Positions 31,835 to 33,271 of a stretch of 64,000 bases of DNA are shown here, piece by piece. A program made the translations under genes and the position numbers. Numbering within the stretch: position 1 is the first letter of the stretch; every line of letters begins with the position of its first letter. The stretch comes from Parcubacteria group bacterium GW2011_GWB1_40_14 (GTDB taxonomy: Bacteria > Patescibacteriota > Minisyncoccia > Terrybacterales > GWB1-40-14): contig LBYG01000001.1 of NCBI GenBank assembly GCA_000996085.1, forward strand, positions 651-64,650, given 5' to 3'. The notes below the pieces were generated by a model that searched no databases, was not told the DNA's origin, and worked only from the letters and a program-made list of their open reading frames with translations.

Positions 31835-33271
31835 ATGAACGGAAAAATTTTACAAGTCATAGGTCCTGTAGTGGACGTTGAGTTTTCAAGCGAGAGCGGA
31901 GAACATAAAAAAACAATTCTGCCCGCAATTTATGACGCACTTGAAATAAATGGTTCGACTTCCCTCGACTCCGCTCGGGACAAGCCGCTCACCACAGGCC
32001 GCTCAAAGAATAAATTAGTGCTTGAAGTTGCCCAGCAACTTGGAGATAAGGTTGTTCGTTGTATTTCTTTGGGCGCAACAGACGGTTTAACTCGTGGTGA
32101 AGAAGTTATTGCAACCGGAGCACCGATTTCGGTGCCTGTGGGTAAAGAAACATTAGGTCGTATTTTTAACGTAATAGGCGAAACTGTAGATGATGGCGAT
32201 CAGGTTGTTTCCGAAAAAAAATATCCGATTCATCGTAAAGCACCTTCTTTTGTTTCACAGTCTACAAAAACCGAAATTTTAGAAACAGGAATTAAAGTTA
32301 TTGATCTTATTGCTCCTATTGTTAAAGGAGGTAAGGTGGGCATGTTCGGTGGCGCAGGCGTCGGTAAAACAGTTGTTATTCAGGAGTTAATCAACAATAT
32401 TGCTAAAGCTCACGGCGGCGTGTCGGTGTTCGCGGGCGTTGGTGAACGTACGCGCGAAGGAAATGATCTTTATCATGAAATGAAAACAGCTAAAGTTTTG
32501 GATAAGCTCGCTATGGTTTTTGGTCAGATGAATGAGCCGCCCGGTTCACGTCTGCGGGTTGCATTGACCGGGTTAACAATGGCTGAATATTTCCGCGATG
32601 AACAAAATCAGGACGTTCTTTTGTTCGTGGATAATATTTTCCGTTTCACACAGGCCGGCTCAGAAGTATCAGCTTTGCTTGGCCGTATTCCTTCTGCGGT
32701 AGGTTATCAACCAACACTTGCTACGGAAATGGGTGAATTACAGGAAAGAATTACATCTACCGATAAAGGTTCAATTACTTCTGTGCAGGCTGTTTATGTG
32801 CCCGCAGATGACCTTACAGACCCCGCTCCGGCCACGACATTCGCTCATTTGGACTCAACTATAGTTTTATCCCGTCAGTTAGCTGAATTGGGCATTTATC
32901 CTGCGGTTGATCCTTTGGATTCAAACTCAACAATTTTAGCTCCCGAATATGTGGGTCAAGAACACTATGATGTTGCTCGAGGCGTTCAGAAGGTTTTGCA
33001 ACGCTATAAAGATTTACAGGATATAATAGCTATATTGGGCTTTGAAGAGCTTTCAGATGACGACAAGATAACAGTAAGTCGTGCCAGGCGCATACAGCGC
33101 TTTTTATCTCAGCCGTTTTTCGTTGCCGAAACATTTACCGGAAGAGAAGGAAAATTTGTATCCCGAGCCGATACTATCCGCAGCTTTAAAGAAATTCTTG
33201 AAGGAAAACACGATGGCATATCAGAACAAGAATTTTATCTGCGAGGTTCTATTGACGACGTGAAGGCGTAA
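31835..33271 (+). CDS. atpD: F0F1 ATP synthase subunit beta (with ~20-aa in-frame N-terminal insertion)
   Basis: Walker A 'GGAGVGKTV' and conserved beta blocks. N-terminal domain carries an extra '[21 protein letters not shown]' encoded by a GC-rich block. Confidence 0.95.

Follow-up and report, generated by a model that had tools for sequence, protein, structure and literature searches.

The gene for the F1 ATP synthase beta subunit (atpD) in the window, by which we mean the whole 64-kb stretch of DNA that was analyzed, carries 16 in-frame codons whose DNA matches a small, dispersed repeat family. The best explanation, and one that we consider probable, is that a repeat unit inserted into a tolerant loop of the protein, where it is carried as a passenger.

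The atpD insert and its lineage

The host gene encodes the F1 ATP synthase beta subunit, as judged by domains, Walker A motif, and operon position. Its product is a 100% match to the database protein "ATP synthase subunit beta" of Parcubacteria GW2011_GWA2_40_8 / Candidatus Terrybacteria, which carries the Pfam domains PF02874, PF00006, and PF22919, and it matches solved F1 beta chains with an E value of 3e-24. The translation includes the Walker A sequence GGAGVGKT, all catalytic motifs are intact in an unbroken frame, and the surrounding operon has the order atpB-E-F-H-A-G-D-C.

An earlier note on this DNA had described a GC-rich in-frame block of about 20 extra codons beginning at position 31955. 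The block is present, with a G+C content of 0.67 in the 48-nt insert versus 0.43 in the rest of atpD and 0.38 in the window, but its sequence (ggttcgact...caaagaa) begins at 31952, and the 21 residues counted in that note span 31952–32014, within atpD. The excess of codons is likewise real but smaller than claimed. Because the loop that holds the insert has 22 residues in the window AtpD versus 6 in the closest relative, L001 (protein P0004), and in 75 of 120 homologues, the true excess by alignment with relatives is 16 codons (Table 1). The remaining residues are native, and the RSKNK immediately 3′ of the insert aligns with the native RKDNK of the relative. A blastn comparison with L001 leaves a gap at 31951–32008.

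The insert consists of one complete motif unit that is preceded by a partial second motif head and followed by a short remainder, GCTCACCACAGGC, which may resemble other G+C-rich units. The partial head, GGTTCGACT, translates as G-S-T, in the frame of the P-S-T found in the inserts of other lineages, and TTCGACTYCGCTCRGG matches at 31954 with 3 mismatches. The same insert occurs in at least three independent assemblies (P0001, P0002, and P0003/L005), on 12 contigs. P0001, P0002, and P0003 are mutually too similar for measuring constraint on the insert.

Table 1. Positions in the window of atpD, its insert, the other motif copies, and the upstream spacer
Feature	Position	Strand	Basis
atpD, F1 ATP synthase beta subunit, host of the insert	31835..33271	+	intact 478-aa ORF
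Lineage-specific in-frame insert GGTTCGACTTCCCTCGACTCCGCTCGGGACAAGCCGCTCACCACAGGC, 48 nt / 16 codons	31952..31999	+	codon-level comparison with L001 and L002; pairwise alignment
Partial second motif head GGTTCGACT	31952..31960	+	direct reading
Complete motif unit TCCCTCGACTCCGCTCGGGACAAGCC, TCCC TCGAC TCC GCTC G GGACAAGC C, C...G subtype	31961..31986	+	
3′ remainder of the insert, GCTCACCACAGGC	31987..31999	+	direct reading
Motif unit CCCTTCGACAAGCTCAGGACAAGCC	62311..62336	+	profile E 6e-7, partly by construction
74-nt intergenic insert with two motif units (26624-26642, 26659-26677, minus strand)	26613..26686	-	profile E 0.07 and 0.02
Second copy of the 74-nt element, motif unit 9317-9336 (+)	9310..9376	+	nhmmer E 1.3e-7 versus the 26613 copy; profile E 0.005
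Lineage-specific atpG-atpD spacer, 187 nt	31638..31824	+	blastn gap versus L001; alignment
Palindromic MITE-like element in the spacer, ~18-nt terminal inverted repeats AAGACTTATGCGTTTGTC / GACAAACGTCTAAGTCTT	31647..31797	.	self-complementary ends

L001 shares full synteny with the window and encodes an AtpD that is ~91% identical (95% over conserved columns; 85% for the DNA), with the minimal 6-residue loop KRKDNK. The loops of L002 to L004 and of P0006 also have 6 residues. In a neighbor-joining tree of AtpD, constructed without support values, the window protein falls inside a clade with mostly 5–6-residue loops, the exceptions being P0011 and P0012, which carry unrelated inserts. Compared with L001, the lineage of the window also gained four further segments within 11 kb, one of which holds two motif units. 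These comparisons show the insert to be a derived, recent gain that postdates the split from the closest sequenced relative, and the proposal of an in-frame insertion into an essential, conserved gene is upheld by a block that is lineage-specific in an intact atpD.

It is very improbable that the long loop is instead old and was lost in the relatives, or that the block is an artifact of assembly or a chimera. Long loops that start with PSTS are common in the AtpDs of Patescibacteria and superficially resemble shared ancestry, but the phylogeny and nearest-neighbor analysis point to a 6-residue loop as ancestral in the window's clade. Furthermore, the other PSTS inserts differ from the window insert in length and in position (by 1–2 codons), and the complete unit is read as L-D-S-A-R-D-K in the window versus P-S-T-S elsewhere, which is another frame. 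An artifact is opposed by the recurrence of the block in the independent assemblies and by the unbroken frame and catalytic motifs.

The motif family and the spacer upstream of atpD

The motif is defined as YCCY-TCGAC-N2-3-GCTC-R-GGACAAGC, a non-palindromic sequence of 25–26 nt with sharp edges in which the base before TCGAC covaries with R. The atpD block (TCCC-TCGAC-TCC-GCTC-G-GGACAAGC) is of the C...G subtype and agrees with the consensus at every specified position, and on its sequence it may be counted as a member of this ~25-nt motif family. A pattern scan of one-genome-per-species contigs yielded at least 120 matches, with more than 12 phyla represented among the matches listed. Note that the pattern was derived from the atpD block and the copy at 62311, and therefore the profile hits to these two, including an E value of 1.5e-5 for the atpD unit at 31961–31986, are partly by construction. 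The four bases 5′ of the pattern were left unspecified. Among the matches listed, ~92% have CC at positions −3/−2, with a pyrimidine on each side (YCCY), and the flanks beyond are random. Because this unspecified head recurs next to random outer flanks, the matches are true family members. The atpD block shares the head, as TCCC.

A profile built from instances in other phyla identifies five motif copies in the window, namely the canonical unit in atpD and four others (9317, 26624, 26659, and 62311), in agreement with the earlier suggestion that the DNA of the block is repeat-derived. An independent test gave the same picture. An unedited 19-mer from the 26659 copy matches only itself, the 9317 copy, and the atpD block, where it aligns to the minus strand at 31961–31979 with 3 mismatches, all transitions (0.00 hits expected). 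In addition, a 14-mer from 62323 matches 31973–31986 with 1 mismatch. These matches show that the inserted DNA belongs to the repeat family.

The unit at 62311 lies antisense in the N-terminal signal-peptide region (..RLVLSLSKGF..) of an ORF at 60682–62373(−), and it shares 23 identical nt with the insert in the AtpD loop of L086, which represents an unrelated lineage. The 74-nt element at 26613 abuts the start codon of a NIF3-like gene and is missing in L001, where near-identical flanks and a blastn gap define a clean indel. Its second copy at 9310 also abuts a start codon (~9381), and the two copies form inverted repeat I1.

In other phyla, the motif is found in-frame in UvrA, DnaX, an acyl-CoA dehydrogenase, a class I aminoacyl-tRNA synthetase, PDH E1, a GH77 enzyme, a transketolase-like protein, and a UvrD-like helicase. 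It is also carried on plasmids of cultured isolates. A search for a phage link returned no motif match in 50,697 phage records, and IMG/VR gave only 18 matches. Presumably the motif is not a fragment of tRNA, tmRNA, RNase P RNA, or rRNA; the variable 2–3-nt center argues against an origin from a universal RNA. Nothing relevant emerged from a literature search with the motif and its translated forms, and both the family and the AtpD-loop hotspot appear to be undescribed.

The earlier note had sought the source of the block in a repeat element in the spacer upstream of atpD. In relatives, atpG and atpD abut, with a gap of 2 nt in L001 and 5 nt in L002. The element in the window's spacer has a strong RNA fold (−53.3 kcal/mol, z = −5.1), but its description as a repeat does not hold, because it is present as a single copy in the window (blastn, nhmmer), with no further copies there or in 1.36 Mb of other loci apart from one in the 99%-identical contig L005. 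A possible diverged duplication at the atpG end (GGTGAAGTGA versus AATTAAATAA) was unconvincing in alignment.

The spacer and the block do share the ordered blocks GGTT(T)CGACT / TCCCTCG / CTCGGGA / ..GCC, as had been claimed, and the spacer ranks first among 1328 window tiles when gaps are scored permissively. Under stringent scoring, however, p is ~0.1, and the CCGCTCAAAGAA block included in the original comparison lies partly in native sequence. The similarity does exceed that of shuffled sequences when the strict 48-nt insert is used (score 32 versus 19–20 ± 3.5 for shuffles; p 0.0025–0.0045), but 3 of 141 G+C-rich real 48-mers match the spacer equally well. The spacer element may thus be said to resemble the atpD block weakly (p about 0.003–0.02).

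This resemblance raises the alternative that the palindromic element 250 nt upstream served as the template for the block or goes back to a common source with it, as might happen if replication or repair switched templates. Since the block and the spacer element are both missing in L001 and L002 and both present in L005, they arose on the same branch. The gapped alignment of the strict insert to the spacer not only lies above shuffles but also beats all 142 tiles with a G+C content of at least 0.45, and the common GGTT(T)CGACT ... TCCCTCG ... CTCGGGA arrangement extends beyond the canonical unit. Nevertheless, we consider such a local origin unlikely. In addition to the nonsignificant stringent score and the equally good G+C-rich 48-mers, the alignment requires five gaps, and the block has no complementarity to the spacer (reverse-complement score 22). 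Moreover, the atpD unit is a contiguous 26 nt; the spacer version, by contrast, is interrupted, escapes the motif-family profile, and therefore cannot be the template for an intact unit. In place of the spacer element, single-copy and weakly similar, the block matches a unit of another motif.

The crown loop of AtpD

In an AF2 model of AtpD, the strands formed by residues 34–39 and 60–70 have pLDDT values of ~90, and residues 42–57 have values below 50 and no secondary structure. The insert is thus predicted to form a disordered loop between two confident strands of the N-terminal barrel. The beta subunit of Bacillus PS3 has a naturally longer loop at this position. Of 120 homologues, 45 carry an insert of at least 5 residues at the crown loop and 12 carry one at loop 1. 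Such inserts are otherwise almost absent, apart from extensions at the N terminus, short extras at the C terminus, and two isolated cases. Both the model and these counts favor the view, put forward in the earlier note, that the insertion is tolerated in a loop of the N-terminal beta-barrel. The AtpDs recovered by a metagenome-contig search are mostly distant (≤75% identity), and few carry inserts.

The nearest neighbors of insert-bearing AtpDs, at 91–96% identity, have either a 6-residue loop or an unrelated insert. P0010 and P0043 are 94.7% identical, yet they carry different loop inserts, and P0026, the sister of P0011, has none. Because near-identical AtpDs carry different inserts, the crown loop is a recurrent landing site. 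The insert DNA in L086, L087, and L088 bears the motif, and that in L089 and L210 bears other G+C-rich palindromes. Since the inserts differ in sequence and length, the DNAs examined are repeat-like, and the nearest relatives lack them, this comparison shows that the other inserts in the same AtpD loop arose in independent events. They are not ancestral, as one and the same insertion in unrelated lineages would have suggested.

One AtpD clade (P0013, P0018, P0027, and others) has a conserved 17-residue loop (..AxGTGRG..), which indicates that extended crown loops can come under selection. The crown domain of F1 beta faces the stalk/delta region in F1Fo. Given this location, the insert might be an adaptive extension selected for, e.g., contact with the peripheral stalk/delta or a partner, with repeat DNA merely providing the raw material. 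The maintenance of the 17-residue loop by a whole clade would agree with such a role, as would the undecayed state of the window's unit despite an A+T-rich genome. However, this role is quite unlikely for the window's insert: AtpDs that are 91–96% identical carry no insert or a wholly different one, the insert is disordered in the prediction, and the same DNA unit is also present between genes and within many unrelated proteins.

We favor insertion of a repeat unit as a passenger. Once the lineage of the window (GW2011_GWA2_40_8 / Candidatus Terrybacteria) had separated from its closest sequenced relative, atpD gained 48 bp in-frame, comprising one complete motif unit and flanking fragments of a small G+C-rich dispersed repeat family, and the same lineage gained other motif copies in intergenic DNA. 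The insert is translated as a hydrophilic 16-residue extension, predicted to be disordered, of a hairpin loop in the N-terminal beta-barrel ("crown") domain and would persist as a neutral or nearly neutral passenger. Purifying selection would remove insertions elsewhere in AtpD, leaving the crown loop as the one place that accepts extra residues, and the insert may survive because of its place in a flexible loop that has received other such inserts time and again in related genomes.

Mode of entry and relation to known repeat systems

Mobilization in trans or templated copying from another copy would be the favored routes of entry. No target-site duplication was found at the junctions in atpD or at 26613, and no terminal inverted repeats were found at the junctions of the atpD insert. 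A flanking AATAAAT block was rejected as a target duplication because codon alignment with L001 reveals that its second copy is native and in a different register. Elsewhere, 8 of 118 motif instances have flanking direct repeats, several of them in tandem heptamers. As RNA, the 48-nt insert has a predicted fold of −11.3 kcal/mol (z = +1.1), a stability that 177 of 200 shuffles equal or exceed. Six canonical units folded as DNA, both strands considered, give −0.3 to −1.8 kcal/mol (z +0.5 to +1.0). A hairpin or regulatory RNA in the block was rejected on the basis of these values. Because the unit does not fold, it is without the feature by which REPs and MITEs are thought to move. Searches of Rfam yielded nothing in the whole window at the gathering threshold or in 31600–32060 at E values up to 5, and no tRNA or tmRNA genes were found in the window. 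A likeness of GGTTCGACT to the tRNA T-arm was dropped.

The insertion of repeats into conserved genes is already known from Rickettsia palindromic elements (RPEs) and intragenic REPs. As summarized in PMC10969869 and PMC1779305, RPEs (Ogata et al. 2000, 2002) are palindromic elements of 100–150 bp that are confined to Rickettsiales and are found in intergenic DNA and in-frame in conserved genes (e.g., a 63–84-bp RPE-7-like insert in PheT). There, their tolerance is ascribed to fold-permitted sites, and they proliferate in particular lineages of reduced genomes. Like RPEs, the atpD insert keeps the frame of a conserved gene that is intact, and it occupies a site where the structure is tolerant. 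Unlike RPEs, it is 48 bp long, its 26-nt unit is not palindromic and does not fold, and the family spans more than 12 phyla among the matches listed.

GTAG- and CGTC-tagged REPs are 20–40 bp long and occur in several phyla as singletons, dimers, and clusters (Di Nocera et al. 2013, PMC3733652). They comprise an 8–9-bp stem, a 4–5-nt loop, and an unpaired GTAG or CGTC tag; no transposase is dedicated to the CGTC REPs, and some REPs lie within known genes, notably those for replication and repair such as uvrA and uvrB (PMC3733652). The motif is similarly found in uvrA, dnaX, and a uvrD-like gene, but its unit has neither the stem nor a GTAG or CGTC tag. Its reverse strand reads TGTC, a variant of the REP tag in PMC3733652, but without a hairpin after it.

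The small dispersed repeats SDR1–8 (Elhai et al. 2008, Genome Res 18:1484, cited in PMC3116915 and PMC5861425) measure 21–27 nt and are reported only in Nostocaceae (PMC5861425). Their mobility was inferred from presence or absence in conserved sequence, and some lie within tandem heptamer repeats (PMC3116915, PMC5861425). The motif is comparable in its 25–26-nt unit, in its clean presence or absence relative to L001 at 26613 and in atpD, and in its location in tandem heptamers in L091, L099 (a Nostocaceae MAG), L113, and L135. In contrast to SDRs, it occurs in more than 12 phyla among the matches listed, a comparison made by description only.

Finally, the spacer element is MITE-like in its size (~150 nt), its 18-nt terminal inverted repeats, its strong fold, and its presence or absence between relatives, but unlike MITEs it has no visible duplication and no second copy in the window or in 1.36 Mb of loci. 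MITEs are known to make in-frame fusions. The atpD insert differs from them in being far below MITE size and in having no terminal inverted repeats or target duplication.

A broader possibility, which we advance tentatively and regard as doubtful, is that one ~25-nt non-palindromic mini-repeat family moves across the majority of bacterial phyla, using a mechanism unlike those of REPs, MITEs, and IS elements. Such a family would routinely insert in-frame in essential genes (atpD, uvrA, dnaX, aminoacyl-tRNA synthetase, and PDH E1), mostly read as P-S-T-S-S-G-Q-A, and the crown loop of Patescibacteria AtpD would be a recurrent landing pad, with turnover even between near-identical proteins. If so, few known mobile sequences would be smaller or more widely distributed, and the motif would quite generally feed loop insertions into conserved proteins.

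The motif is short, non-palindromic, common to more than 12 phyla among the matches listed, and often translated in housekeeping proteins. How it spreads is a testable question, provided that it is indeed undescribed. Its units create lineage-specific indels in phylogenetic marker genes and spurious "hypothetical proteins" in metagenome annotation. For the Patescibacteria, the finding shows that repeat DNA can enter even one of the most conserved enzymes encoded by a reduced CPR genome, with the insert marking where the protein bears extra residues. Repeat activity in this group might be followed through the crown loop of AtpD as a natural marker, and tags might be engineered into F1 at this permissive site.

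Gain of a 16-codon insert in AtpD

Repeat DNA was recently gained in frame in a tolerant loop of AtpD. A Candidatus Terrybacteria protein is near-identical to the AtpD of the window, and the 'ATP synthase subunit beta' of Parcubacteria group bacterium GW2011_GWA2_40_8 is fully identical; the host therefore belongs to the Patescibacteria (CPR). Across 120 aligned homologues, the loop bounded by ..YDALE(I/V) and (K/R)L(V/T)LEV comprises 22 residues in the window versus 5–7 in most others. The block that an earlier note had quoted from this gene is indeed present, with its first base at 31952, but the ~20 extra codons claimed there overstate a real excess. 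The window codons are gaa ata aat [ggt tcg ... aca ggc] cgc tca aag aat aaa (insert in brackets), and L001, the closest relative without the block, has gaa ata aaa cgt aag gat aac aaa, which makes the window longer by precisely 16 codons. Therefore, the insert proper ends at 31999, and the adjoining RSKNK answers to native residues. The insert has a G+C content of 67% versus 43% across the remainder of atpD; that of the window is 38%.

The L001 AtpD is ~91% identical to that of the window (95% across conserved columns), the DNA is 85% identical along 11 kb, the order of the genes is unchanged, and the L001 loop is the 6-residue KRKDNK. Loops of 6 residues are likewise present in the next relatives (P0005, from L002–L004, and P0006). 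In a neighbor-joining tree calculated with the loop left out, the window AtpD falls within a group in which short loops prevail; P0011 and P0012 depart from this, and their inserts are unrelated to that of the window. An assembly artefact as the origin of the insert was rejected because three independent assemblies carry it, among them a JGI contig (L005) with 99% identical DNA.

The preceding barrel loop is also extended in a lineage-specific way, by six codons (11 residues versus EQIKS in L001), and this extension is not G+C-rich. Two small ORFs for predicted membrane proteins without a Pfam match, located between atpA/atpG and atpD/atpC, are kept in L001 (4830–5063 and 7339–7569); ORFs between atp genes of other Patescibacteria (L087, L088, L089, and L210) encode 23S_rRNA_IVP, PDDEXK_3, GerE, or unknown products.

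Features of the window discussed in the text
Feature	Position	Strand	Remark
F-type ATP synthase operon	27017–34149	+	complete
atpD	31835–33271	+	478 aa
Insert in atpD	31952–31999		extra versus L001
Motif unit in insert (block core)	31961–31986		
Preceding-loop extension	31886–31918		residues ~18–28
Spacer between atpG and atpD	31638–31824		187 nt, extra; the two genes abut in both L001 and L002
Palindromic spacer element	31647–31797		
Intergenic element, copy 1	26613–26686		74 nt, extra versus L001
Intergenic element, copy 2	9310–9376		
Motif unit, fourth locus	62311–62336		
ORF with fourth locus	60682–62373	−	563 aa
Segment, 145 nt	33287–33431		extra versus L001
Segment, 157 nt	34578–34734		extra versus L001
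Small ORF	30494–30727		77 aa
Small ORF	33431–33661		76 aa

Source of the insert within the window

The earlier note related the block to the spacer element, a ~150-nt palindrome with inverted ends of ~18 nt and a very stable fold (z = −5.1). That reading was right in kind, as repeat-derived DNA in a tolerant loop, but wrong on the source. Under permissive gapped scoring, the block does align best to the spacer element among 1328 window tiles, and the strict 48-nt insert gives p values of 0.0025–0.0045 against shuffles. However, the likeness is weak and had been overstated, given that stringent scoring yields no significance (p ~0.1). Three of 141 real G+C-rich 48-mers match the spacer as well as the insert does, and CCGCTCAAAGAA, one of the blocks said to be shared, falls mostly in native atpD sequence. 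Nor is 'repeat element' an apt label, because neither the window nor 1.36 Mb of related loci contained another copy, apart from the one in the 99%-identical contig.

A different relationship emerged from two intergenic segments that are copies of each other (nhmmer E 1.3e-7). When the 19-mer CCTGAGCGAAGTCGAAGGA, taken unedited from one copy, was searched in the window at no more than three mismatches, it matched itself, the sister copy, and, with three transitions, the atpD block on its minus strand (CCCGAGCGGAGTCGAGGGA) and nothing else, with zero matches expected from 100 shuffles. A fourth locus (CCCTTCGACAAGCTCAGGACAAGCC) has GGCTTGTCC(T/C)GAGC in common with the block. On this evidence, the block core, TCCCTCGACTCCGCTCGGGACAAGCC, reads as one unit of a G+C-rich motif. 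A profile built from foreign instances detects five units in the window (starting at 62311, 31961, 9317, 26659, and 26624) and not the spacer element; the scores of the atpD and 62311 units are in part circular, as these two supplied the underlying scan pattern. Support independent of that pattern comes from the CCTGAGCGAAGTCGAAGGA search, the sequence shared with the fourth locus, and an upstream YCCY that the pattern left unspecified. The unit at the fourth locus runs antisense to an ORF for a secreted protein (MSSYNIGYLIKKRLVLSLSKGFATAFAVAILFL..), within its N-terminal signal-peptide region, where the hydrophobic reading LVLSLSKG fits; the genome has probably taken up a second in-frame insertion there.

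Five segments within 11 kb are extra in the window relative to L001, and the junctions of the 74-nt element and the spacer are clean indels between near-identical flanks. Both intergenic copies adjoin a downstream start codon in the same relative orientation; copy 1 provides GGAG ~11 nt upstream of ATG, a sequence missing from the empty L001 site, and the element may be a portable 5′ leader or ribosome-binding site. The MITE-like spacer palindrome sits exactly at the junction of the atpG stop and atpD start, breaking the tight abutment seen in relatives and replacing the final atpG codons (AIK* to AVK*). The 145- and 157-nt segments are intergenic, A+T-rich, and unrelated to the motif; they carry long internal inverted repeats (e.g., accccgttagaaaattgc...gcaattttctaacggggt), and no further copies of them were found.

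A short motif shared across phyla

Scanning one genome per species (GTDB) with the pattern TCGAC-N2-3-GCTCRGGACAAGC gave at least 120 matches. Those listed come from Planctomycetota, Chloroflexota, Acidobacteriota, Verrucomicrobiota, Omnitrophota, Bacteroidota, Cyanobacteria, Gemmatimonadota, Patescibacteria, several classes of Proteobacteria, and others. Among them, the four upstream bases left free in the pattern fit YCCY (C at −3 and at −2 with pyrimidines on either side in 111–112 of 121 instances), and positions beyond the motif are random on both sides. This unspecified head and the random outer flanks indicate that the matches are real relatives with sharp edges, and the unit can be written YCCY-TCGAC-N2-3-GCTC-R-GGACAAGC. 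In the same 121 listed instances (L090–L209), the base immediately before TCGAC and the R of GCTCRGG covary in the Watson–Crick sense (T-A 99, C-G 15, T-G 4, C-A 2, G-A 1; Fisher p 1e-13), the atpD unit being of the C-G type. The covariation could reflect two subfamilies, a 3–4-bp closure, or protein-binding symmetry; the sole pairing proposed within the unit, a 3–4-bp (T)CCY/RGG(A) closure, coincides with the covarying pair.

The motif is also carried by plasmids of cultured Methylomonas, Nostoc, Pseudanabaena, Sphingomonas, and Rhizorhabdus, which rules out a metagenome artefact; in Pseudanabaena, an inverted pair lies in frame within an annotated helicase gene. No match was found among 50,697 phage records, and IMG/VR holds only 18 stretches. 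Neither the motif nor its translations turned up in a search of published full text, which is weak evidence of novelty.

Among the listed instances from other genomes, 38 of 122 sit in ORFs reaching at least 80 codons to each side, and 21 of these 38 are read in the frame P-S-T-(S/G)-S-G-Q-A. Nine hosts, spread over genomes of many phyla, are named by Pfam (L209, L105, L159, L188, L146, L170, L198, L171, and L137): UvrA, DnaX (two tandem units), a CcdA-redoxin fusion, acyl-CoA dehydrogenase, a class I aminoacyl-tRNA synthetase, PDH E1 (three tandem units), GH77 glucanotransferase, a transketolase-like protein, and a UvrD-like helicase. Tandem units, where two or three are present, are 24 nt each.

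The AtpD loop as a recurrent insertion site

Inserts of at least 5 residues occur at the loop of the block in 45 of the 120 homologues, and 12 have them at the preceding loop; elsewhere in AtpD they are almost absent, apart from extensions at the N-terminus, short extras at the C-terminus, and two isolated cases. The nearest neighbors (91–96% identity) of insert-bearing proteins have a 6-residue loop or a quite different insert, as with P0010 (PSTSSSSKTSLGTSVNK) and P0043 (NVEARRGVPSSDGMPGHAATSNK), which are 94.7% identical. Insert DNA was compared for six loci. That of L086 (CCTTCGACAAGCTCAGGACAAGC) is identical over 23 nt to window 62312–62334, and those of L088 and L087 hold CCCTCGACTTCGCTCGGGGCGAG and the unit in split form. 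L089 (3100–3237) carries an 80-nt palindrome of another G+C-rich type, read as VIARSAADEAISSQDGKKIASDALAMT; L210 carries GGCACGCCGCGGCGTGCC and GGCATGCCGGGGCATGCC, its loop repeat being a pair of G+C-rich palindromes (GGCACGCC/GGCGTGCC and GGCATGCC) read as EARRGVPSSDGMPGHA; and L211 carries GGACAAG/GGGCAAG sub-repeats. The insert position shifts by one or two codons between lineages, and a complete unit is read L-D-S-A-R-D-K in the window and P-S-T-S elsewhere. The inserts of different lineages are independent events. In one clade (P0013, P0018, P0027, P0037, P0045, P0048, P0064, P0105, and P0119), a conserved 17-residue loop (..RP-x-x-Q-x-x-A-x-G-T-G-R-G..) seems fixed and constrained.

An AlphaFold2 model from 48 aligned sequences was mediocre overall (mean pLDDT 68), and we used only its confident N-terminal domain (pLDDT ~90), in which residues 42–57, between strands 34–39 and 60–70, have pLDDT values below 50 and no secondary structure. 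The loop at this place is naturally longer in Bacillus PS3 beta (1SKY), and the known position of the crown domain suggests that it faces solvent in the assembled enzyme. The insert is probably a passenger retained as harmless, with selection purging inserts elsewhere and so concentrating them here. The unit does not form a hairpin: the block folds worse than shuffles (z = +1.1), and six canonical units folded as DNA give −0.3 to −1.8 kcal/mol (z >0). No consistent target duplication was found across 118 instances; eight of them, several within tandem heptamers, have flanking direct repeats of 7 nt or more, versus 0.8 expected. Entry of a 25-nt unit without inverted ends or hairpin might involve trans-mobilisation or templated copying, both of which are guesses.

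Rickettsia palindromic elements (RPEs), of 100–150 bp, form in-frame repeats within conserved genes (PMC10969869, PMC1779305), and GTAG/CGTC-tagged REPs occur in several phyla, also inside uvrA, uvrB, and other replication/repair genes (PMC3733652). The present unit differs from REPs and RPEs in lacking their defining hairpin and from MITEs in lacking TIRs and duplication. Very small mobile repeats of 21–27 nt (SDRs) have been described in Nostocaceae (Elhai 2008, cited in PMC3116915 and PMC5861425); compared with that description alone, the unit is alike in size and behavior but unlike in distribution. In-frame repeat insertion is thus a known phenomenon, of which the atpD case is a new variant, and the features deserving attention are the cross-phylum mini-repeat and the insertion hotspot in the AtpD crown loop.
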